Translations under genes and position numbers: made by a program
In this document: piece by piece, positions 1-9,487 of the stretch
How the letters are laid out: each line of letters begins with the position of its first letter
Position numbering within the stretch: position 1 is the stretch's first letter
Origin: a virus
Lineage: Duplodnaviria; Heunggongvirae; Uroviricota; Caudoviricetes
Virus record (IMG/VR): IMGVR_UViG_2645728091_000021
Length of the DNA: 9,487 nucleotides
Strand: one strand, 5' to 3'
The notes under the pieces: generated by a model
What the model was told of the DNA's origin: nothing
Seen by the model: only the letters and a program-made list of their open reading frames with translations
Databases searched by the model: none

Positions 1-1020
1 CTACTTACTGACCACAAGCGGCAAATCCAGTGTTGGTGTGATTTTGGTTTTACGATCGTAAATCAACACCTGATTTTCTGTTTTGTGTCCACTGAAAATT
101 TGTTTGTCGCGACTGCTGCCTTCGTAATCTGAAATCCCTTTGGCTTTTATGTCATGAAAATTACATCCGAACGGAACGCCTGCTTTTTGCTCGGCTGCGC
201 GTTTAGCCTGATTCCACCAGTTGTTCAGCGTTTTAGCGATGACTTTCCCGCCTTTGGTTGTGCTGATCACATACTCGCATGTGCCGGAAGATACATTTCG
301 GGCTAACTGGATCGCCGTACGTAATCGCGGAGACCATTCCTTGATTTGTTTGGTGCCTGTTTTGTTTTGCTCAATGTAGATCCCTTTATCCATAATATCC
401 TGCCATTTTAGCTCGAGAACATCACCGAGCCTTGCCGCACAAAGATAGGAAATCTCCATTGCAATGCGTAACTGTGGAATTGCTTCCGCGTATATCGCCG
501 CATACTGTTCATCGGTTATGTAAACAGTGCGGGCTTTAAGCGTGAATTTTCTGACGCCTTTGCATGGATTATTTTTCACATACCCACGCTCATATCCCCA
601 TCCGTATACGCGACTCAGGCTTGCCAGCTCATGGTTTGCCTGGGTCTTGCTCTCAAGTCCCCGCTTATCCATGAAAATTCTTACTTGCTCAATTTTTACA
701 TTATCAGCAAGCACTTTACCGAATACCGCCAGCAACGCCCTCTGATGTTGTCGATAATCTTTTTGGGTTCGGGGTGCCAGTTCTGTAAATGCAGGGGAGT
801 CCATAAACATGTGCCATAATTTAGCGACGGTCATTATGTTGTGGAGTTTTGCTTTTTCCAGTTCATAATTTTGCCAGACTTTAGCTACGCTGGTTTCCCG
901 TACTCTTCCGAGCCCTATAGTTCTTGTGCTTCCTTCGGGTTTCCACACGTAACTGTAACCATTCGATCTAACACGCGGTGGTAGTGCATTATCTTTTTTG
1001 TTTTTTCTTGGTCTTCCCAT
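1..1020 (-). CDS. int: Tyrosine recombinase / phage integrase, lambda Int family (339 aa)
   Basis: Complete minus-strand ORF; its stop codon is the complement of bases 1-3. By-eye similarity to the lambda Int catalytic core (ours AARLGDVLELKWQDIMDKGIYIEQNKTG vs recalled lambda TGQRVGDLCEMKWSDIVDGYLYVEQSKTG), plus a C-terminal SGH...LIYDR region consistent with the His/Tyr catalytic box. Start overlaps the upstream small ORF by 32 nt, the classic xis-int arrangement. Confidence 0.92.
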   Translation of the reverse strand: MGRPRKNKKDNALPPRVRSNGYSYVWKPEGSTRTIGLGRVRETSVAKVWQNYELEKAKLHNIMTVAKLWHMFMDSPAFTELAPRTQKDYRQHQRALLAVFGKVLADNVKIEQVRIFMDKRGLESKTQANHELASLSRVYGWGYERGYVKNNPCKGVRKFTLKARTVYITDEQYAAIYAEAIPQLRIAMEISYLCAARLGDVLELKWQDIMDKGIYIEQNKTGTKQIKEWSPRLRTAIQLARNVSSGTCEYVISTTKGGKVIAKTLNNWWNQAKRAAEQKAGVPFGCNFHDIKAKGISDYEGSSRDKQIFSGHKTENQVLIYDRKTKITPTLDLPLVVSK

Positions 1021-1240
1021 TGTTCAGCGCCTCAAAATCGGGTTCAGCGGAAACCAGCTCAGCTGCTTTTGGCATCGTTGTCAGTCCGTGTGGAATATCC
1101 CTGCGAAGAACTATTGGTTCGTTTTTAGGACCGATTACAAATGGGATGCCGTGCAGCCTTAACTGGTGTTGCTGTTTTGTGTATCGCTCGTATTTCGTGA
1201 TCTCTTGAATCTCTGCTGGCGATAGAGTTAATTCGTACAT
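989..1240 (-). CDS. xis: Excisionase-like small DNA-binding protein (83 aa)
   Basis: Small ORF immediately upstream of int and overlapping its start (989-1020); basic C-terminal tail KTKKKQKR. Assignment rests on position and size, not on a recognised motif; SD is weak. Confidence 0.62.
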   Translation of the reverse strand: MYELTLSPAEIQEITKYERYTKQQHQLRLHGIPFVIGPKNEPIVLRRDIPHGLTTMPKAAELVSAEPDFEALNNGKTKKKQKR

Positions 1241-1306: not shown

Positions 1307-3766
1307 TTAAAAATCAACCGGATTCGGGATCAGTTTTTGCCAGATTGCTGAAACGTATTTTGCCTGGTGACGGGCGTCATCCAGTGCATTGTGGCGAACG
1401 CCTTCGAATGGAATAACGGTTCTAGCATCAAAGTCGATTGTTTTTCCCAGCTCAACGATTGTGCGTACATCGCGATCGTTGTGGTAGCGCCACGGGCAGG
1501 GGATTCCCTGTCGTTCGTATGAACGGCGTAAAATTACGTTGTCGAAACTGGTTCCGTTGCCCCAGACCTGAACAAAAAACTCACCGGAGTTTTCGTCGAT
1601 AAATTCCCGTAATTGCAACAGTGCATCATCTAACGGGATTTCATCAGCCAGAATGGCAGACTGCGCTTCGCGCGATTGCTTCAGCCACCACTTAACGGTG
1701 TCCCTGTCAATGACACCGCCAGCAGTATCCAGATCGATGGTCTTACTGAATTCTGGCCCAATATCTCCGGTTTGCGGATCGAAAAATATTGCACCTATTG
1801 AGATAACTGCAGCATCAGGATTTTTTCCCATGGTTTCCAGGTCGATCATCATATGAGTCCACATTCTGTTGCTGGTGGATATGTATTTATGATGACTGTT
1901 CACCGTAATTAGGGGATTTGCCGTCTCGCCAGTTTCATCACTGCTATTGCCATGCTGAGCGTCACCAGCGCTCTCCTTACGAGAATGCGCAGTGCTTTCC
2001 ATTTTCTCCGAATCTTTTTCAGCCAGATTTTCTTCATCGAATGTTTCCTGATATGTTGTGTTACCCATAACAGGCCCGCAGTCCGGACATTTTCCGCCGC
2101 CAGCCCGGCCGCAAGTATTGCAGCTTTTTTCAGTCTCCTGTTGTGCTGTTGGCTCTGACTGTTGCACTTCTGGCCCGTTTTGTTGCGCATCCGGGCTGTT
2201 TTGTTCCGCTTTCTGGTCGTTCTGTTCCATTTCTTGCTGATTCTGGTACACAGAATCGCGAGTCTGGATCCCCTCAACCCACTTCGGATCATTCGGGTCG
2301 CTAATTCCTTCAACAAATTCACCACGTGATGCAGCAAGCACTTTGTCTGCATCAGGCAGATTTTCTGTCTCCATTTTTTTATTTGTTTCGACCGTGTTAA
2401 CTTTTACCGGCTCTGGTTGTTCAGAGTTTTGTGCGGCATTGGTATTTTGCGGTAAGCCTGTGTATGTGCCATTTTTTCGGGCGACGTATTCTTCTTTGGT
2501 GATTTCAGTAGCCCCGGCAGCCAGAGCCTTATTCAGACCAGACAGTTTGTTTGCGCGACCGTATTTTTCGCTGTCCTTATCGGTAAAGAGGAAGTAGAAC
2601 GGTCCTTCACGCTCTACAGATGGTTCAGCTTCCAGTGCGCTTTCATTTTTTTGGGTGCCAGATACTTCTGTTTCCACTGCATCAGTTTGTGTTGCTGACG
2701 ACCGGAGAACATCAGCAGGACTCTGATCCGTTTCTTCATCTTCAAACACGCCTTTTGTCGTCAGGTATTCAGTGATGTATTTGTTCAGCGCCACGGGATC
2801 TTTGTGAATGTTGAGCGGACGTTCGCGAACAAGACCAAAAATCGTCTGACGGCTGTAGCGAAGCGCATCAGGCTGTTTGCGCATTGATGCGGAGATACGC
2901 TTCCAGTCTTCTCGGTCGTTGTCGATAACTTCATTTTTTGCCCAGCGATGGATACTGCCGTCAATGTTTCCGGCATCAATATCACCAGGCCAGAGGGCGC
3001 AGGCCAGTTCGCCATCCAGTGTTTTCCATGTCTGCTTGTATTCGCGATGAATGACAGCAGTTACGGAGTCAGTTTTTCCTGCAGAGTTTTCAGTGCCTTG
3101 CCGGTTGACTCTGGCGCGGGCAAGATCGACGACGGAATTATATGCTCCACCTTCTTTGCGCTCCTTTTCCATGCGTTTTTTACGTTCGAGAAAATACGCC
3201 TGAACGTCGGGCCATTTGGCTGTTGGTTTTAAATCACGTCTGGCATCGTTGATGTACTCAGTCTGACGCTCAGGATATATGGCGTTAATTTCTTTAGTCC
3301 TGATAATTGCTTCAGTGAGGTGTCCATCAAAAGTCGTCATCTCGTCATCGCCGAGAAGCCCGCTTGCATTGATGACCATATCCACGGTGATGTTTTCATG
3401 TGTACCGAACCTGACAAGGACAGCAGCCCGCTTGTCTTCAGATAACTGATTAAAGTTAACAGTTTCTGTATCCGGTTCAGGGTCGACCGGAACAAAGGAA
3501 GCCGACTCCTCATTCCAGCGGTTTTCCTGCATATATTCGGAATCCCAGGAATCGAGAGCAGGGCGGGCCATGCCGGGTTTATCCTCGCAGACAAGAAATT
3601 TATAAGCACAGTCCTGAGCTTCCGGGTATTGTTCCAGAAATAACCAGCTAAATTTGGCTCTTGCCCGGCGTTCGTCGCCTGCTTCAATGGCAGTGGCCAC
3701 AGGTTTAGCGCCTTCTGCTGTTGCCTGTTCGTCCGGAATGGCGGCGCAAATAAAGACTTTACTCAT
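1307..3766 (-). CDS. RecE-like (exodeoxyribonuclease VIII family) mosaic protein with C-terminal DEDDh (DnaQ-like) 3'-5' exonuclease domain (819 aa)
   Basis: Single long minus-strand ORF with a GAGG SD upstream of ATG 3766. The C-terminal ~181 aa (about 1310-1852) carry the three DEDDh motifs in order: MIDLET (Exo I), WGNGTSFD (Exo II), HNALDDARH (Exo III, H-x4-D). The centre has a Q/E-rich low-complexity linker and a C-x2-C-x7-C-x2-C zinc ribbon (CNTCGRAGGGKCPDCG, about 2075-2122), preceded by ...LAASRGEFVEGISDPNDPKWV..., which I recall from the central region of Rac RecE. Sits between the dicB cassette and xis-int, where lambdoid recombination genes normally lie. Confidence 0.8.
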   Translation of the reverse strand: MSKVFICAAIPDEQATAEGAKPVATAIEAGDERRARAKFSWLFLEQYPEAQDCAYKFLVCEDKPGMARPALDSWDSEYMQENRWNEESASFVPVDPEPDTETVNFNQLSEDKRAAVLVRFGTHENITVDMVINASGLLGDDEMTTFDGHLTEAIIRTKEINAIYPERQTEYINDARRDLKPTAKWPDVQAYFLERKKRMEKERKEGGAYNSVVDLARARVNRQGTENSAGKTDSVTAVIHREYKQTWKTLDGELACALWPGDIDAGNIDGSIHRWAKNEVIDNDREDWKRISASMRKQPDALRYSRQTIFGLVRERPLNIHKDPVALNKYITEYLTTKGVFEDEETDQSPADVLRSSATQTDAVETEVSGTQKNESALEAEPSVEREGPFYFLFTDKDSEKYGRANKLSGLNKALAAGATEITKEEYVARKNGTYTGLPQNTNAAQNSEQPEPVKVNTVETNKKMETENLPDADKVLAASRGEFVEGISDPNDPKWVEGIQTRDSVYQNQQEMEQNDQKAEQNSPDAQQNGPEVQQSEPTAQQETEKSCNTCGRAGGGKCPDCGPVMGNTTYQETFDEENLAEKDSEKMESTAHSRKESAGDAQHGNSSDETGETANPLITVNSHHKYISTSNRMWTHMMIDLETMGKNPDAAVISIGAIFFDPQTGDIGPEFSKTIDLDTAGGVIDRDTVKWWLKQSREAQSAILADEIPLDDALLQLREFIDENSGEFFVQVWGNGTSFDNVILRRSYERQGIPCPWRYHNDRDVRTIVELGKTIDFDARTVIPFEGVRHNALDDARHQAKYVSAIWQKLIPNPVDF

Positions 3767-3859: not shown

Positions 3860-4051
3860 TTAAAGGCCTGCCGGGATTTCGTTATTGTTCATGCGAATAA
3901 CTTTGTCGACAGGATAACAGTTCCCGGGAATTTTTTGCTCTGCCGCGGCAGTCATGCATTCTTCCATTGAGTCATGTATGTCAATAACAAGATCAATCGG
4001 TTCACCAGAAACAAAAAAAACAGTCAGAACGAGTACAAATGCCGTATTCAT
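3860..4051 (-). CDS. ydfD: YdfD-like small membrane protein (63 aa)
   Basis: Product MNTAFVLVLTVFFVSGEPIDLVIDIHDSMEECMTAAAEQKIPGNCYPVDKVIRMNNNEIPAGL has an N-terminal hydrophobic helix. Its ATG (4051-4049) overlaps the dicB stop (4050-4048) as ATGA, implying translational coupling. Length and position immediately downstream of dicB match my recollection of Qin YdfD. The longer in-frame start at 4105 was rejected. Confidence 0.7.
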   Translation of the reverse strand: MNTAFVLVLTVFFVSGEPIDLVIDIHDSMEECMTAAAEQKIPGNCYPVDKVIRMNNNEIPAGL

Positions 4052-4236
4052 TGCCTGCATCCTGTTTGCATCAGACGTAAACGGGCCAGCATCGAAACAA
4101 TGCATATTTTATTTAGCAGTTCCTGTTCGTGTTTTCTTTTATTAATGGCATCTTCAGTAAATATCTGATTGCTGATAGTGACACCAATTTCAAAACAACC
4201 TTCAGACGTATTAACGTTTGGTAATAACGTTTCCAT
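4048..4236 (-). CDS. dicB: Cell-division inhibitor DicB (62 aa)
   Basis: Product METLLPNVNTSEGCFEIGVTISNQIFTEDAINKRKHEQELLNKICIVSMLARLRLMQTGCRQ is near-identical to my recollection of E. coli DicB (62 aa). GAGGA SD lies 7 nt upstream of ATG 4236-4234. The 97-aa extended ORF from 4341 is not supported. Confidence 0.9.
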   Translation of the reverse strand: METLLPNVNTSEGCFEIGVTISNQIFTEDAINKRKHEQELLNKICIVSMLARLRLMQTGCRQ

Positions 4237-4405
4237 TATCGCGTCCTCAACAATGAATTTTGTGATGCGGTGCCTGGTGCCTCCAGGTGACGTTAACCAG
4301 TTAACAATTAACGCCGGATACAGAGAATCCACCCATAACACTGTTTTTGGTTTTAACTGTTCCGCGTGCGCTGAGCCGCATTCACCGCATCACAAAATTC
4401 ACTTT

Positions 4406-4446
4406 AAAAAGGGCGGACATCAGTTCATGGGCAAACAGATGCCGCC
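4406..4446 (-). terminator. Intrinsic terminator forming the DicF 3' end
   Basis: On the minus strand GGCGGCAUC...GAUG(U)CCGCC forms a ~9-bp stem with one bulge and a 16-nt loop, followed by UUUUU (plus 4406-4410 is AAAAA). Confidence 0.7.
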
Positions 4447-4461
4447 AAACGTCACCAGAAA
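4406..4461 (-). ncRNA. dicF: DicF small regulatory RNA (ftsZ-targeting sRNA)
   Basis: Minus-strand sequence UUUCUGGUGACGUUUGGCGGCAUCUGUUUGCCCAUGAACUGAUGUCCGCCCUUUUU. The 5' ~20 nt and the terminal GCCGCCCUUUUU match what I recall of E. coli K-12 DicF; the central part differs. It lies ~170 nt upstream of dicB, as in Qin. Confidence 0.85.
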
Positions 4462-4765
4462 ATTGATAACAGAGGGCGTTGCAGCGGGGTTGTCACTTAA
4501 GCGTATGGTCAACCTGACAACCCGGTGTCCTCAACGGGGAAGGAATAACCCCGCCATACTTACCGCCGCGCCATTTCGCGGAGTGCCACAACCGGAAGCG
4601 CACGGTCGACGAAAATTTAACGACAGGCTATCTATGAACCAGCTACCTCGCCGTGCGCTTTCGCGTTATGGTCTGACTTTTCAGGGAAATATCCTTTCAG
4701 TAAACTGTCAGTGCCGGATGCTCACCCGTGTCCGGCGCACGCACTCTACCTCACCCGTGAATAAA

Positions 4766-5140
4766 TTAATGATTAATTGATATTTTATAGGTGGATTCAA
4801 CTTTCCCATCGGATGTGTGATGCTTTAAATCACAGGAATTAATACTGCTTGCTGTAAAGTGATTTTTAAGGGGGGCTATTCGAATCCCTTTCTTTTTCAT
4901 TAACAGGCCAAATCCCTTATTAATGATGTCCATTAATTCCAGACAGTATTTTTCATGTAAATCCTGGTTATCAGAGAGCTGCTTCTCTTCGTATAGCCCG
5001 ATAAAGGCTCGGCGCACGTTACCGGATATATTATCGATGGTTTCTTTTTCTACGGTACTCAGGTCAAGAGTAGCCAATTGAGAACGAACTATATTCGCTG
5101 CCATTTCCTGGAATGGTATTGGTAAATCTTTAAATTCCAT
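4766..5140 (-). CDS. Hypothetical protein (124 aa), AT-rich cargo gene in the dicB operon
   Basis: Minus-strand ORF; preferred start is ATG 5140-5138 (MEFKDLPIPFQ...), preceded by GAGG with a 6-nt spacer. The alternative ATG at 5152-5150 overlaps the upstream gene stop as TGATG. Visibly AT-rich relative to flanking genes. No motif I recognise. Confidence 0.6.
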   Translation of the reverse strand: MEFKDLPIPFQEMAANIVRSQLATLDLSTVEKETIDNISGNVRRAFIGLYEEKQLSDNQDLHEKYCLELMDIINKGFGLLMKKKGIRIAPLKNHFTASSINSCDLKHHTSDGKVESTYKISINH

Positions 5141-5151
5141 CGTCAACCTCA

Positions 5152-5304
5152 TCAGTCAGTGTTTCTGGCTAACCAGCGACGCGCGCCAGATTCGGTTTTA
5201 AGCGTTTTGCTTTTGGTATACGTCATTGCGGTGAACGTACCGTCCTGGTTTGGGAACACGCCGCACACCAGAGATTCGTTGTTGCCAAGATCGATAGTAT
5301 TCAT
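5152..5304 (-). CDS. ydfA: YdfA-like small protein (50 aa)
   Basis: Product MNTIDLGNNESLVCGVFPNQDGTFTAMTYTKSKTLKTESGARRWLARNTD; GAGG SD 5 nt upstream of ATG 5304-5302. It is the first gene after the leftward promoter, as ydfA is in Qin, and resembles my recollection of the YdfA (DUF1391-type) family. The upstream in-frame Met at 5358 lacks an SD. Confidence 0.6.
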   Translation of the reverse strand: MNTIDLGNNESLVCGVFPNQDGTFTAMTYTKSKTLKTESGARRWLARNTD

Positions 5305-5381
5305 GCTGACCTCATTTCCCCTTAACGCCGGGGTAGCTGAACTGTTTGCTGAGAACACCGTGCGGTGTCTTGGTGGAGATT

Positions 5382-5436
5382 AATTTAGAATAACCTAACA
5401 AATGTGGCAAGTATTTTTTGTTAGATTGGTCTAACA
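5382..5436 (-). promoter_or_regulatory. Leftward early promoter (PdicB-like) with two DicA-type operator palindromes
   Basis: Minus-strand -35 TTGCCA (plus 5405-5410), 17-bp spacer, -10 TAAATT (plus 5382-5387). A degenerate operator TTAG-N6-CTAACA (5383-5400) sits in the spacer; a perfect TGTTAG-N6-CTAACA palindrome (5419-5436) sits just upstream of the -35. Confidence 0.5.
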
Positions 5437-5472: not shown

Positions 5473-5880
5473 TTATTTTATTGATTTGTTTTTACGTGCT
5501 TTAAGCATTTCTTCGAAGAGTTTATTGAAATTTTCTACTCTTGCGCGCATTTCAGACAGTAAGGCTTCCTGCTCGGAGGAGGGAAGAGCATCGAATAATT
5601 CGATCAATTCTTTGTGGCTGGGAGTTAACTCGGTTTCCACATGAAGTTCTTGTGCTGGCACTGGTGCCTTGTCTTCGTCACCAAACATTAGCCATGTAGG
5701 CGAGCACTTCAGCGCATCAGCTAAAGCAAATAACCGCTTCCCGACCGGTTGGGTTTCGTCTCTTTCCCATTGTGAAATTGTGACGTGAGCTACCCCAGCG
5801 AGGCGTGCAGCTTCTCGTTGTGTTAGGCGTAATTCTTTTCGTCGTGCCAGAACTCGCTGGCCTAGGGTTCTTGTATCCAT
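5473..5880 (-). CDS. dicA: DicA-like HTH (XRE family) prophage repressor (135 aa)
   Basis: Product carries an N-terminal HTH (LTQREAARLAGVAHVTISQWERDETQP). The C-terminal part (...LFALADALKCSPTWLMFGDEDK...LPSSEQEALLSEMRARVENFNKLFEEMLKAR...) closely matches my recollection of E. coli DicA, which is also 135 aa. Divergent from the cro-like gene. No SD; a TAGAAT -10 lies 9 nt upstream of the ATG, suggesting a near-leaderless mRNA. Confidence 0.9.
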   Translation of the reverse strand: MDTRTLGQRVLARRKELRLTQREAARLAGVAHVTISQWERDETQPVGKRLFALADALKCSPTWLMFGDEDKAPVPAQELHVETELTPSHKELIELFDALPSSEQEALLSEMRARVENFNKLFEEMLKARKNKSIK

Positions 5881-5960: not shown

Positions 5961-6188
5961 ATGCTTAAAGTTGACGCAATTACTTTTTTTGGCAGCAAAA
6001 CAAAACTTGCCAATGCCGCAGGAGTGAAACTGGCAAGTGTTGCTGCATGGGGGGAACTGGTTCCTGAAGGTCGCGCGATGCGCCTGCAAGAGGCATCCGG
6101 CGGGGAACTTCAGTACGACCCCAAAGTTTATGACGAATATCGTAAGGCAAAGCGGGCGGGGCGGTTGAACAATGAAAATCACCCCTGA
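5961..6188 (+). CDS. dicC: DicC-like Cro-type regulator (75 aa)
   Basis: Product MLKVDAITFFGSKTKLANAAGVKLASVAAWGELVPEGRAMRLQEASGGELQYDPKVYDEYRKAKRAGRLNNENHP matches my recollection of DicC. GAGGGGG SD 5 nt upstream of ATG 5961; the TTG at 5958 in the ORF track is less likely. Divergent from the dicA-like gene. Confidence 0.85.
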   Translation: MLKVDAITFFGSKTKLANAAGVKLASVAAWGELVPEGRAMRLQEASGGELQYDPKVYDEYRKAKRAGRLNNENHP

Positions 6189-6693
6189 ACAGGTTTGTGA
6201 GGCTCTGGATGCCTGGGTATGCCGACCAGGAATGACACAGGAGCAGGCGACGATATTAATCACGGAAGCATTCTGGGCTCTGAAAGAACGCCCGAACATC
6301 GATGTTCAACGCGTCACGTTTAATGATGGCGAGGTTGATCAACGGGCGTTGGGCGTTAACCGGGTGAAGATATTCGAACGCTGGAAAGCTATCGACACCA
6401 GGGATAAGCGGGAAAAATTCACGGCGCTGATTCCGGCAATTATGGAGGCTATCCGGATCAGCGATTTCAGGTTGTATTGTGAAATTACTGACGGAAAAAG
6501 CATTACGTACATGATCGCCGGGTTAAACAAAGAATATGGTGATGTGGTGGAGTCCGGGCTGCTTTTTGCGGATCCATCTGTTGTGGAACGTGAGACTGAC
6601 GAGCTTATAGAAAAAGCTATTGCTTTCAAGCATGCGTATCGTCAGCAATACCAACAAAAAGCTGGATGGAATTATGAGCCTTCTTTTTGCTGA
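6172..6693 (+). CDS. YdaT-like / CII-position regulatory protein (173 aa)
   Basis: ORF overlaps the dicC-like 3' end by 17 nt and the replication initiator start by 20 nt, i.e. the CII position of a lambdoid right operon. The segment ...KIFERWKAIDTRDKREKFTALIPAIMEAI... resembles what I recall of Rac YdaT; the family call is tentative. Confidence 0.6.
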   Translation: MKITPEQVCEALDAWVCRPGMTQEQATILITEAFWALKERPNIDVQRVTFNDGEVDQRALGVNRVKIFERWKAIDTRDKREKFTALIPAIMEAIRISDFRLYCEITDGKSITYMIAGLNKEYGDVVESGLLFADPSVVERETDELIEKAIAFKHAYRQQYQQKAGWNYEPSFC

Positions 6694-7639
6694 ACGCCCA
6701 CTGGTTATAAACACACAGCTTGCGATGAAGATTGGCTTAAATGAAGCCATTGTGTTGCAGCAGTTGCATTACTGGTTGAGAGATACCAGTTCCGGTATGG
6801 AATGTGACGGGGTTCGCTGGATTTATAACACAACAGAACAATGGCTGGAACAGTTCCCGTTCTGGTCAGAGTCAACGTTAAAACGCGCATTTGCAAGTCT
6901 GAAAACGCTGGGGCTTTTGCGTTGCGAAAAGCTCAACAAATCAAAGCGTGATATGACTAATTTTTACACGATTAATTACGAGAGTGAGCTTTTAGATGGT
7001 GGCAAAGTGAGCGAATCCATCAGGTCAAAATGCGCCGCTCCATCGGGTCAAAATGACACGATGGAAGAGGTCAAAATGGCACGATCCATTGGTTCAAAAC
7101 GACCCAATGTCATCGGGTCAAAATGGCCTGATGATCTTACAGAGAATACAACAGAGATTACTACAGAGAATAAAAACACTTCTCGTCCGGAAGCTTCGCA
7201 ACCGGACCCGCAGACGGCTGAACAGGATTTTTTAACCCGACACCCTGACGCGGTTGTGTTCAGTGCGAAAAAACGCCAGTGGGGAAGTCAGGAAGATTTG
7301 GCGTGCGCACAGTGGATCTGGGGACGAATCGTGAGTCTTTACGAGCAGGCTGCCAGCGATGATGGCGAGATCACGCGACCGAAAGAACCAAACTGGACCG
7401 CATGGGCCAATGACGTGCGCACAATGCGGATGCTGGATGGCAGAAGCCACAGACAAATTTGCGAAATGTTTGGTCGGGTACAGCGAGATCCATTCTGGGT
7501 AAAAAACATCATGAGCCCGTCAAAGCTTCGCGAAAAATGGGACGACCTGGTCATCCGCCTGGGGCGTTCACCTGTACAGTGTTGTGTGAATCATATTTCT
7601 GAACCGGATACCGAAATTCCGCCTGGTTTCAGGGGATAA
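6674..7639 (+). CDS. Replication initiator (O-like origin-binding N-terminal domain, DnaT-like C-terminal domain), 321 aa from ATG 6674
   Basis: N-terminal domain MSLLFAERPLVINTQLAMKIGLNEAIVLQQLHYWL...LKRAFASLKTLGLLRCEKLN looks winged-helix-like. An iteron array lies inside the gene (see repeat feature), as for lambda O. The C-terminus ...SEPDTEIPPGFRG matches my recollection of the E. coli DnaT C-terminal tail (...EPDSQIPPGFRG). Alternative starts at 6620 (TTG) and 6632 (ATG) are possible. Confidence 0.8.
   Translation: MSLLFAERPLVINTQLAMKIGLNEAIVLQQLHYWLRDTSSGMECDGVRWIYNTTEQWLEQFPFWSESTLKRAFASLKTLGLLRCEKLNKSKRDMTNFYTINYESELLDGGKVSESIRSKCAAPSGQNDTMEEVKMARSIGSKRPNVIGSKWPDDLTENTTEITTENKNTSRPEASQPDPQTAEQDFLTRHPDAVVFSAKKRQWGSQEDLACAQWIWGRIVSLYEQAASDDGEITRPKEPNWTAWANDVRTMRMLDGRSHRQICEMFGRVQRDPFWVKNIMSPSKLREKWDDLVIRLGRSPVQCCVNHISEPDTEIPPGFRG
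7023..7125. repeat. Replication origin iterons: five copies of GGTCAAAATG-type core at ~23-bp spacing, followed by an A-rich ACAGAGA triple repeat (7139-7172)
   Basis: Cores at 7023-7032, 7046-7055, 7069-7078, 7091-7100 (variant GGTTCAAAAC) and 7116-7125, each within a longer repeated unit (cat-cGGGTCAAAATG-...). Immediately downstream, ACAGAGA recurs at 7139, 7151 and 7163 in an A-rich tract, resembling the AT-rich unwinding region next to the lambda ori iterons. Confidence 0.75.
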
Positions 7640-7679
7640 GTGGTGATTTTAGGGCATAAAGTAATGTTCAGGAGGACTT

Positions 7680-8087
7680 ATGGCAAAAGTATTTACACAG
7701 GAAGAGCGGGAAAAAATTAAAGGACAGGTGGTGGAACTCGTGCGCCAGAGCGGTCGTGAGACGTTACGGCAACTGGAAGCTAAAACAGGTGCGACAAGAT
7801 ATCTGATGAGCGTTCTTGCCAGAGAGCTGGTTGCCAGTGGTGATGTATATCACTCTGGCTATGGGGTGTTCCCGTCAGAACGGGCTCGTAAGGACTGGCA
7901 AAACGCCCGCAAAAAACTCTCGAGGGCAAAGGTGAAGAAACCTGTTGTGGTTGATCCGGGCCTTATCTGGACATTACCCGACGGAGAAATACGTCGCTAC
8001 GACAGGCGTATGAACATAATCTGTCGCGAGTGCCGGAAGAGCGAAGTTATGCAGCGTGTATTGGCGTTCTATCAGGGATATGCCTAG
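7680..8087 (+). CDS. Hypothetical protein (135 aa), backbone-like GC, possibly DNA-binding
   Basis: Strong AGGAGG SD 5 nt upstream of ATG 7680. Basic C-terminal half (KKLSRAKVKKP, RRYDRRMNIICRECRK). Sits where a helicase loader (P/DnaC-like) would normally follow the initiator, but is far too small for an AAA+ loader. No motif recognised. Confidence 0.65.
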   Translation: MAKVFTQEEREKIKGQVVELVRQSGRETLRQLEAKTGATRYLMSVLARELVASGDVYHSGYGVFPSERARKDWQNARKKLSRAKVKKPVVVDPGLIWTLPDGEIRRYDRRMNIICRECRKSEVMQRVLAFYQGYA

Positions 8088-8133
8088 AATTGTCACAGGT
8101 AATGAAATTAAAGAGTATTGGTTCGGATATGAA

Positions 8134-8163
8134 TTGACATTTTCGCGGCACAGAGCTAAAAAT
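8134..8163 (+). promoter_or_regulatory. Candidate sigma70 promoter in the AT-rich spacer upstream of the SIR2-like gene
   Basis: -35 TTGACA (8134-8139), 17/18-bp spacer, -10 TAAAAAT (8157-8163). A transcript from here would carry a ~290-nt leader before ATG 8456. Confidence 0.4.
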
Positions 8164-8455
8164 AGCCTACTTGTTGGTTTTGTGTGAAAAGCAGACATTT
8201 TGAGGCTCAGGATTTGTTATCAAATAAGACCAATACTTATCTATATTAATACACATTAAATACTGTGCAATACATTATTGCATTTTATTAGATAAGCGAT
8301 ATTTAGGGAAAAGAAAAGTCATAGAAAACAGGCCGCTATTTGTTGTTGGATTTTATAGGCTATATCTAGATTATCTTGCCACTGCGGTCTCTGTTTACCT
8401 AACAGCTTGGGCTTCTTTGCATGCAAGTTTGTAATAACAAGTGTAATCAAACGGA

Positions 8456-9487
8456 ATGTCTATTAATCCTAAACTTAAGCGTATCGCGCGACGCTATCCA
8501 GCGTTATTCCAATATGAGTCCCCCTATATGGCAAGAAAATTAATAATATTCGGCAACGGTCTCGGTATGGCTTTAGATCCTGCTCACTTCTCCTTAGACA
8601 GAGCGTTGGAAGAAATTTGGCATCGCCCCAATTTTTTAAAAGATATCCACAAGCAACTTATCGAGCGTTGTCTTCAGCGGCAAGGTCCACCAGAAGGAGA
8701 ACATGAGTTGGATACCCTTCACCAGGCTGTCACATATTGTAAAGCTCTTGCTCAAATTGGAGAGGGGAACGTGCATTGGCTTACTGAAGATGGACTAAAC
8801 TTCCCCAAAATTACCGCCACTTATATTCACAAAGTTGCAACCAGGTTGCATAATTACGATAAAGGTTTGCCACAAAGATTCGAAAATGCGCTTGTGGAGT
8901 TTGTAAAGAACACACACTCACATATCGCGACATTAAACTATGACAAATTATTATACAATTCATTCATAGATAATGATATATTCAACGGGTATGATGGGGT
9001 TTTAGTTGATGGGATGCTAAGCCACGGATTTTCCTCTGCAGCGCTCGAACGGAAATACAATCGTAGGTTTGGTTATTATTTGCACTTGCATGGTTCACCA
9101 CTATTTATTAATCAGCATGAAAATGTTTTAAAACTTTCACGCTCACAACTTACTCTTGACATAGATGAACCTAGTGAGCATATAGTGTTAACTCATATAA
9201 AAAGAAAACCGTCAGTTATAGCAGCATCTAATGTTCTTTCTACGTACTGGGATTATTTGCAGTTTGCATTATTTGAATCAGAAGAAATAATATTGTTTGG
9301 TTACTCTGGTCTCGATATTCACCTTAACCTGCTTATTCGACCTTACCTAACCTCTAAGCCTTTAAGAGTAATTGAGTGGAGCGGTGCTGGTGAACAAAAC
9401 GCTCGTGAGATATATTGGAAAAACCAGTTGAGACGGGAAGTTACTGTAATTAGGTTGGATAACATCACTGATTTTATTGATTGGTAG
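8456..9487 (+). CDS. SIR2-like (SIR2_2-type) domain protein, candidate NAD+-consuming anti-phage effector (343 aa)
   Basis: Complete ORF; its stop TAG is the last three bases of the window. Ordered motifs: glycine-rich loop IIFGNGLG (res 31-37), TLNYD (159-163, putative catalytic Asn161), HLHGS (210-214, putative catalytic His212), FGYSGLD (281-287). These parallel the ThsA SIR2 motifs I recall (FAGAGLS, TTNYD, KMHGD, FVGFSFTD). The gene and its 368-bp upstream spacer are visibly AT-rich compared with the phage backbone. SD is weak; M25 (8528) is an alternative start. Confidence 0.75.
   Translation: MSINPKLKRIARRYPALFQYESPYMARKLIIFGNGLGMALDPAHFSLDRALEEIWHRPNFLKDIHKQLIERCLQRQGPPEGEHELDTLHQAVTYCKALAQIGEGNVHWLTEDGLNFPKITATYIHKVATRLHNYDKGLPQRFENALVEFVKNTHSHIATLNYDKLLYNSFIDNDIFNGYDGVLVDGMLSHGFSSAALERKYNRRFGYYLHLHGSPLFINQHENVLKLSRSQLTLDIDEPSEHIVLTHIKRKPSVIAASNVLSTYWDYLQFALFESEEIILFGYSGLDIHLNLLIRPYLTSKPLRVIEWSGAGEQNAREIYWKNQLRREVTVIRLDNITDFIDW

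Follow-up and report, generated by a model that had tools for sequence, protein, structure and literature searches.

The question raised by this locus is what a nuclease gene does in the recombination slot of a lambdoid prophage when no single-strand annealing protein is encoded beside it. The locus lies in a stretch of 9,487 nucleotides (hereafter the window, meaning the whole stretch of DNA that was analysed) from IMG/VR virus record IMGVR_UViG_2645728091_000021 (Caudoviricetes), and the gene, an 819-amino acid (aa) exonuclease open reading frame (ORF), occupies positions 1307-3766 of the minus strand. The original prediction had described the product as a mosaic of the RecE type, carrying a DEDDh 3'-5' exonuclease domain in place of the RecE nuclease and lacking an annealase partner, and had suggested for it a role outside classical annealing recombination. 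We establish here the domain make-up of the protein, the integrity of its active-site residues, the absence of an annealase and the position of the gene in its operon. The gene is best read as encoding a DexA-like exonuclease acting on DNA ends in the lytic programme, outside any annealing recombinase, a reading to which a probability of about 0.55 is assigned.

The features of the gene and of its product, all on the minus strand, are the following.

1307-3766, minus strand: exonuclease ORF, 819 aa, ATG start (ORF call)
3152-3766, minus strand: aa 1-205, folded N-terminal domain, the Pfam YdfE_N region (PF27430 hit for the identical NCBI protein P0001)
2738-3049, minus strand: aa 240-343, helical middle region, weakly similar to RecE 234-365 (24% identity)
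2462-2611, minus strand: aa 386-435, small conserved domain with the motif ERxGPFY...GRANK...EI(S/T)xEEYxARKxG
1904-2410, minus strand: aa 453-621, RecE-like segment within an acidic Q/E-rich linker (60% identity to RecE 435-592)
2078-2122, minus strand: aa 549-563, Cys4 motif CNTCGRAGGGKCPDC, putative zinc ribbon (CxxCx8CxxC; low model confidence there)
1340-1858, minus strand: aa 637-809, DEDDh 3'-5' exonuclease domain of the Rv2179c/DexA family (PF16473)
1832-1849, minus strand: Exo I motif MIDLET, aa 640-645 (D642, E644), aligned with DexA D7/E9
1541-1564, minus strand: Exo II motif WGNGTSFD, aa 735-742 (D742), aligned with DexA D119
1367-1393, minus strand: Exo III motif HNALDDARH, aa 792-800 (H792, D797), aligned with DexA H186/D191

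The C-terminal domain is a DEDDh exonuclease

A hidden Markov model (HMM) search of the C-terminus matched aa 637-809 to PF16473, the Rv2179c-like 3'-5' exoribonuclease domain, with an E-value of 1.3e-65 and a score of 220.9 bits (cut-off 27), over positions 1-177 of a profile of 177; the Pfam match to RNase_T is weak. All catalytic residues are highly conserved in a set of 104 sequences made of the window protein and 103 representatives clustered at 50% identity, D642 being found in 103, E644 in 100, D742 in 101, H792 in 103 and D797 in 102 of them. Since the residues are kept in 100-103 of the 104 sequences, the three motifs named in the original prediction are not chance matches, and correspond to Exo I, Exo II and Exo III. 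When solved structures were searched by sequence in the PDB, T4 DexA (8KEL/8KEN) was the sole one found (E 4e-7).

A single-sequence AlphaFold model was discarded because of a mean predicted local distance difference test score (pLDDT) of 37. In its place we used an AlphaFold (AF2) model from an alignment of 28 sequences, in which the linkers and aa 760-819 are still poorly modelled. The nuclease domain takes up in this model the RNase H-like fold of DnaQ, and its nearest folds are those of DexA (8KEL), which is the top Foldseek match, RNase T, Orn, Cap18, ExoI and M. tuberculosis 4HEC. The profile match, the conserved catalytic residues, the sequence match to DexA and the fold matches together make the DEDDh assignment of the last ~180 aa solid, as had been proposed, and the comparison with DnaQ and RNase T folds that had been suggested as a check falls on the same side.

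The gene is an intact ydfE

The relationship to RecE is partial. BLASTP against K-12 RecE aligns aa 218-621 with RecE 234-592 (E 8e-52), and a segment-wise comparison limits the strong similarity to aa 453-621, which are 60% identical to RecE 435-592 and include the Cys4 motif, corresponding to RecE 517-531. Residues 218-350 are 24% identical to RecE, and the remainder is unrelated. Near RecE residue 592 the similarity comes to an end, shortly ahead of the nuclease part that Pfam covers (615-850), the whole RecE nuclease domain having been placed at 564-866 in a review (PMC11611040). The NCBIfam RecE equivalog PRK09709 is matched only in part (aa 452-622), with 254.5 bits against a cut-off of 1269. 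Pfam scans of the exonuclease found neither PF12684 (DUF3799, PD-(D/E)XK) nor PF06630 (the Exonuc_VIII N-terminal domain), whereas K-12 RecE has both. The notion of a RecE-like mosaic thus holds for the linker and its Cys4 motif, which are homologous to RecE, and fails for the N-terminus. Because the first ~450 aa belong to the Pfam families YdfE_N and YdfE_C and not to PF06630, and the score falls below the equivalog threshold, the protein is not simply a RecE with a swapped nuclease.

The ORF matches PHROG 2082 ('exonuclease') over its full length. Membership of the 819-aa protein in YdfE_N (PF27430) and YdfE_C (PF27432) rests on the precomputed Pfam hits of the identical NCBI protein P0001, which also has the Rv2179c-like hit. 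In the Qin prophage of K-12, ydfE is a pseudogene cut by IS2, which lacks everything past approximately aa 255; over the first 255 aa it is 67% identical to the exonuclease, and both genes sit in the order dicB-ydfD-ydfE-(xis)-int. Given the shared families, the level of identity and the same place after dicB and ydfD, the window gene is the intact orthologue of the truncated K-12 pseudogene. That the window copy is itself a decaying pseudogene was ruled out: its reading frame is uninterrupted, the catalytic residues are the conserved ones, and two complete phages, PhiR42_1 and HannyBb, also carry the gene.

The N-terminal domain (aa 1-205) consists of an alpha/beta part (aa 1-95) followed by helices, is modelled with pLDDT values of about 75-88, and is kept in divergent homologues (alignment A1). 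The helical middle region, which reaches pLDDT values of 65-84 at aa 285-340, exists in two or more alternative versions among homologues. A disordered acidic stretch of low model confidence (aa 344-385) leads to the small domain at aa 386-435, the motif residues of which are invariant or nearly so in alignments A1 and A2 (pLDDT 72-81). The next ~200 residues (aa 436-634) form an acidic Q/E-rich region with a net charge of -19, mostly predicted to be disordered, and pLDDT values are below 40 in the RecE-like segment that it contains. The CxxCx8CxxC pattern recurs in 188 of the 214 retrieved homologues longer than 600 aa (homologue search hits and cluster representatives).

Annealases go with the nuclease type

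The exonuclease ORF is separated from the xis-like ORF (989-1240) by 66 bp, as originally stated, so that there is no room for an annealase gene between the two. Pfam and PHROG scans of the other ORFs of the window revealed no annealase. The search was extended to 84 sequences, the window and 83 related loci, which are 80 IMG/VR loci with a nuclease domain 86-93% identical to that of the window, one E. coli chromosomal copy, and the complete phages PhiR42_1 and HannyBb. In these sequences tblastn detected no RecT, Bet, Gam, lambda Exo, Erf, Abc1 or Abc2. As tblastn with K-12 RecT had missed the divergent recT genes of loci L091 and L092, which Pfam found, the negative was rechecked with phmmer and a three-sequence RecT HMM on the 3344 ORFs of at least 80 aa in the 84 sequences; no annealase emerged, though a very divergent or novel one could escape such a search. 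An annealase adjacent to the gene in a complete element had been named as a finding that would overturn the prediction, and neither PhiR42_1 nor HannyBb has one annotated; the unnamed early genes of HannyBb have no annealase domain either. Among the loci listed (25 of the 80), a small xis-like ORF lies 62-70 bp beyond the exonuclease gene, and the integrase gene comes next.

The domains of the family are combined in different ways. Among the DEDDh relatives, 55 loci have the window-type N-terminus, and 24 of the 83 have the RecE N-terminal domain PF06630. In turn, the window-type N-terminus is also fused to a PD-(D/E)XK (DUF3799) domain, in protein P0144 and in loci L090-L092. In L091 and L092 the gene after the PD-(D/E)XK version belongs to the RecT family (PF03837, E 1e-39 and 9e-30), and either overlaps it or lies 14 bp away; in the Rac prophage of K-12, recT directly follows the PD-(D/E)XK recE. 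Since recT follows PD-(D/E)XK versions, and DEDDh versions lack it with either N-terminus, it is the nuclease type, rather than the scaffold, that the annealase accompanies among the loci examined. With no annealase gene adjacent, a nuclease domain of the DEDDh and not of the PD-(D/E)XK type, no annealase in the window, in the 83 loci and in the complete phages, and recT beside the PD-(D/E)XK versions, it is very unlikely that the exonuclease is part of a two-component annealing recombinase. The claim that the gene does not serve classical single-strand annealing is therefore upheld, and it is the recT genes directly following PD-(D/E)XK relatives on the same scaffold that speak for it most strongly.

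The DEDDh module also occurs alone. Salmonella phage 118970_sal3 encodes a stand-alone homologue of the nuclease domain, of 189 aa and 58% identity (L101, 5995-6564), directly upstream of xis-int, hence in the same slot of an otherwise unrelated early operon. To judge from this homologue, the module is apparently self-sufficient. The early operon of 118970_sal3 encodes in addition a deoxyribonucleoside 5'-monophosphate phosphatase and a DUF2303 protein.

A third architecture associates YdfE_N and YdfE_C with a conserved C-terminal module of ~270 aa. It was found in loci L096-L100 (gene 6001-8379 or 6001-8295) and L093, and in proteins P0272, P0296, P0148, P0157, P0158, P0188 and P0227. Pfam and PDB profile searches revealed no relative of the module. 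In every locus examined this version occupies the same operon slot, a Sipho_Gp157 gene comes next (overlapping it in L096-L100), and no RecT was found. The idea that the module is a fused annealase of the Rad52 type, suggested by the motif KKSLTDAxKKALSxLGFSADVY, was dropped, as hhalign comparisons with P22 Erf and lambda Bet gave probabilities of less than 1%, and the PDB profile search and Pfam lent it no support.

Abundance and naming of the family

The window gene is not an unusual one. The identical protein is catalogued in NCBI, on 61 contigs, as '3'-5' exoribonuclease' or 'exonuclease', the names also used in RefSeq. DNA of the nuclease domain (576 bp) resides in 4060 of 5426 complete E. 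coli genomes (75%), in up to seven copies per genome, and homologues of the domain are found in 1433 of 50,697 phage records, from temperate and virulent phages alike. The candidates scored include more than 6000 homologues, and there are 11,849 cluster representatives with a match at an E-value of up to 0.001. The gene is thus a member of an already catalogued, very abundant family, the domain composition of which is recorded in Pfam, PHROGs and NCBI names. Many phage records (among others PV340562.1, ON470583.1 and OV696610.1) label the gene 'exodeoxyribonuclease VIII' or 'exonuclease VIII, ds DNA exonuclease', although the RecE nuclease domain is absent from it. The first of these labels, a frequent one, is misleading. 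From the literature searches we know of no paper on the full-length protein or on the link between nuclease type and annealase; those combining Rv2179c with prophage, or ydfE with exonuclease, returned nothing.

Operon and neighbouring genes

The window spans the integration, early-left and immunity regions of a Qin/DicB-type lambdoid prophage of Escherichia. A prophage located beside yccA in three complete E. coli genomes matches it over its whole length with ~92% identity, and the gene order is that of Qin in K-12. The exonuclease gene is a core early gene of prophages of this type. The other features of the window are the following.

1-1020, minus strand: tyrosine integrase gene (Pfam Phage_integrase; annotation of L001 and L095)
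989-1240, minus strand: xis-like gene (DUF4224; Pfam and PHROG 'excisionase' matches)
3860-4051, minus strand: ydfD-like DUF1482 gene, directly upstream of the exonuclease gene in the same operon (Pfam DUF1482, E 8e-23)
4048-4236, minus strand: dicB, same operon as the exonuclease gene (Pfam DicB, E 2e-38)
4411-4460, minus strand: DicF-like RNA (Rfam RF00039 match)
4766-5358, minus strand: two small genes
5382-5410, minus strand: promoter-like site TTGCCA-17-TAAATT, just downstream of the repressor gene (consensus scan)
5473-5880, minus strand: cI/dicA-like repressor gene
Plus strand: cro, a YdaT/CII-like gene, an O-like replication gene, a DUF977 gene and a SIR2-family gene cut by the window end

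The consensus scan found no promoter-like site in the 93 bp upstream of the exonuclease gene, and the sole minus-strand site upstream of it is the one at 5382-5410. By comparison of gene orders, the position of this site matches that of the dicB-operon promoter of K-12, and it is likely the promoter of the operon that includes the exonuclease gene. The exonuclease would then be co-transcribed with dicB, ydfD, xis and int from a repressor-controlled leftward operon. Because of this control, the protein would be made upon induction or infection, and not in the quiet lysogen.

The DicF-like RNA, which sits between a 128-aa ORF and dicB, matches RF00039 over its full length with 43.5 bits (E 3e-8), and is missed by a default Rfam search because its score is below the gathering score of the family (48). 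An STnc100-like match (4259-4399; 37.4 bits, cut-off 47) overlaps the dicB leader. The 128-aa ORF (4766-5152, minus strand) matches PHROG 6937, of unknown function, over its full length and has no match in Pfam and PADLOC scans; located between a DUF1391 gene and the DicF region, it stands in for ydfB/ydfC of K-12 Qin. On the opposite strand of the DicF/dicB leader region, a 203-aa ORF (4169-4780, plus strand) falls in the stretch of highest GC content of the window (0.52), and is most likely not a gene. In the rightward operon, the SIR2-family gene (8456-9487, plus strand) follows the DUF977 gene and runs off the window end. It matches Pfam SIR2_2 (E 1e-5) and, weakly, the PADLOC models Aga_SIR2, PDC-S21 and SIR2, and gave no match in the PHROG scan; a related E. 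coli prophage has a 319-aa 'SIR2 family protein' annotated at the same place. This gene, in an accessory ('moron') position, is probably a defence candidate that the prophage carries.

Function of the exonuclease

Beyond the composition of the locus, it is polarity, substrate and biological role that we infer. According to the preferred reading, that of a DexA-like exonuclease acting on DNA ends, the C-terminal domain would remove nucleotides from free 3'-OH ends in the 3'-5' direction with the aid of two metal ions, as expected from its family. DNA, in the form of linear ends, is the more likely substrate, since the closest characterised relative is T4 DexA (along with EcD) and the scaffold is of the RecE type, though RNA is possible. 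The scaffold, which RecE-type proteins also use, would bring the nuclease to DNA ends. The enzyme plausibly acts without a single-strand annealing protein, and would for this reason not be a recombinase of the RecET or Red type. The most likely job would be the trimming or degradation of linear DNA ends during lytic development, with fragments of host DNA, DNA of competitors or 3' tails as targets. Both DexA and EcD, its homologue in E. coli, are DNA 3'-5' exonucleases (PMC12153337), and by analogy with them the degradation of DNA ends is plausible. Confidence is higher for the enzymology than for the biological role. Proofreading had been proposed among the possible roles; no result obtained here points to it.

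Several observations weigh against this reading. The literature holds, as far as searched, no biochemical or genetic data on the protein or on its full-length relatives, and we know of no temperate phage that scavenges host DNA in the manner of T4. PF16473 is named after an exoribonuclease, so that RNA could be the substrate. The nuclease domain is modelled with moderate confidence (pLDDT 50-83, and below 50 for aa 760-819), and structure searches with the model of the YdfE scaffold gave no informative neighbour. Finally, the promoter consensus scan shows no excess over shuffled sequence, which makes the promoter evidence weak and expression in lysogens possible.

Expression in lysogens would suit a different function, and the main alternative, conceivable if doubtful, is that the gene encodes an anti-phage nuclease acting in superinfection exclusion. 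The DEDDh domain would destroy the nucleic acid of incoming phages, the N-terminal scaffold being auxiliary, and the target would be either modified DNA, as proposed for EcD ('HREX'), or RNA phage genomes, attacked at their 3' ends as by the 'TONDO' exonucleases of prophages and plasmids. EcD, a homologue of DexA from E. coli, degrades T4 DNA and protects against T4 (PMC12153337). Eight bacterial DEDDh exonucleases, encoded by prophages or other mobile elements and typically linked to unrelated auxiliary domains, confer protection against MS2; four of them were also tried on Q-beta, and all four protected (PMC13344964). The window gene is likewise prophage-borne and extremely widespread, and a SIR2-family candidate defence gene resides in the same prophage. 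Its location is less suggestive of defence, because the gene is approximately the sixth of the repressor-controlled dicB operon, has no promoter-like site of its own, and lies before xis in a core slot that is fixed, unlike the variable loci of accessory ('moron') genes. Nor are the DexA residues tied to 5-hydroxymethylcytosine recognition clearly retained. At the position of DexA W152 the protein has H762, with a tryptophan three residues upstream, although 45 of the 104 family members do have a tryptophan there; the region of D169 aligns ambiguously, with aspartates on either side. The tetramer contact D90 of DexA is lost in EcD (A78; PMC12153337), but retained in the window protein as D714. 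PADLOC-DB 2.0 yields only a marginal match to a generic Cas-associated DEDDh model (E 8e-4, 18 bits). Kinship with EcD and TONDO is a possibility raised by their published descriptions. The 23-mer of the reverse primer for EcD (HAK9828821.1) is not found in IMG/VR, but the cloned gene may be codon-optimised; the protein ends derived from the primers (MIDTET... and ...TIPETYD) matched none of the proteins compared.

A function in recombination that dispenses with a dedicated annealase appears unlikely. In such a scheme the RecE-like scaffold would hold the nuclease at DNA ends, where 3' strands would be resected, or 3' flaps and heterologies trimmed, and RecA/RecFOR of the host, or replication restart, would complete recombination or genome circularisation. 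The gene lies indeed in the slot of lambda exo/bet and Rac recE/recT, scaffold and linker are common to recombination nucleases of the RecE type, and RusA and DUF968/HNH genes are found in the nin region of related prophages. T4 DexA takes part in intron homing, a recombination-dependent repair of double-strand breaks (PMC12153337). A 3'-5' polarity would nevertheless remove the very 3' tails that RecA and annealases need. In addition, of the versions examined, all those with a DEDDh domain have lost the annealase and all those with a PD-(D/E)XK domain have retained it, and a domain free of the scaffold fills the same slot in another phage. Less probable still is a 3'-5' exoribonuclease that trims or degrades host or phage transcripts, or small RNAs such as the DicF of the same operon. 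The Pfam family takes its name from the Mycobacterium exoribonuclease Rv2179c, the NCBI name is '3'-5' exoribonuclease', RNase T and oligoribonuclease are among the structural neighbours, and a DicF-like RNA lies upstream in the operon. Yet, many DEDDh enzymes act on both RNA and DNA, so that the name carries little weight, and the link to scaffolds of the RecE type, which operate at DNA ends, argues for DNA.

The variety of architectures lends itself to a broader and rather speculative interpretation, which we would not favor at present. The YdfE/RecE-type N-terminal region may be a general targeting platform for interchangeable effectors, namely a PD-(D/E)XK nuclease with RecT, a DEDDh nuclease, and the ~270-aa module with Gp157, and the DEDDh version may be, instead of a housekeeping nuclease, a weapon in conflicts among phages or between phage and host. 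If so, this version would degrade nucleic acids of competing phages or of host defences from the 3' end, and the HREX/TONDO idea would extend to a full-length prophage protein that most E. coli strains possess. Present in some 75% of complete E. coli genomes, and often more than once per genome, the gene would bear on phage therapy and ecology if a role in phage exclusion, such as that published for the stand-alone EcD, proved true. If the DexA-like reading is correct, little changes: instead of a RecE recombinase, the gene simply encodes a DexA-like 3'-5' exonuclease mounted on a YdfE scaffold. The link between nuclease type and annealase is a natural domain-swap experiment on the role of the unexplained N-terminal scaffold of RecE and YdfE.

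Comparison with known systems

Rv2179c of M. tuberculosis, the founder of PF16473, is described as an exoribonuclease, and is a small bacterial protein that stands alone; phmmer against the PDB gave no direct sequence match to it. The TONDO proteins, DEDDh enzymes of the ISG20-like type encoded by prophages and plasmids (bioRxiv 2026, PMC13344964), resemble the exonuclease in joining a DEDDh domain to a variable auxiliary domain and in residing on mobile elements. By description, which is the basis of the comparison, they differ from it in having been chosen as ISG20-like proteins shorter than 500 aa, and in acting on the 3' ends of RNA phages (PMC13344964).

RecE, the exodeoxyribonuclease VIII of Rac and partner of RecT, is likewise encoded in an early-left operon upstream of xis/int. 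The two proteins share the segment at aa 453-621 with its Cys4 motif, and a weak similarity at aa 218-350. The exonuclease differs from RecE in lacking the PD-(D/E)XK domain, PF06630 and a RecT neighbour, and has a predicted 3'-5' polarity, as opposed to the 5'-3' polarity of RecE. In linear-linear recombineering, RecE of full length is known to perform better than its nuclease domain alone.

The closest comparison is with T4 DexA (exonuclease A, 8KEL/8KEN), which belongs to the same DEDDh subfamily, is 29% identical over 166 aa, aligns at all five catalytic residues and is also phage-encoded. DexA, of 227 aa, and its homologue EcD ('HREX'; Kang et al., NAR 2025, PMC12153337) both apparently consist of a single domain, with EcD starting at MIDTET to judge from the cloning primers, whereas the exonuclease of the window carries an N-terminal scaffold of 635 aa. 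DexA, moreover, serves a virulent phage with modified DNA, and the exonuclease belongs to a temperate lambdoid phage.

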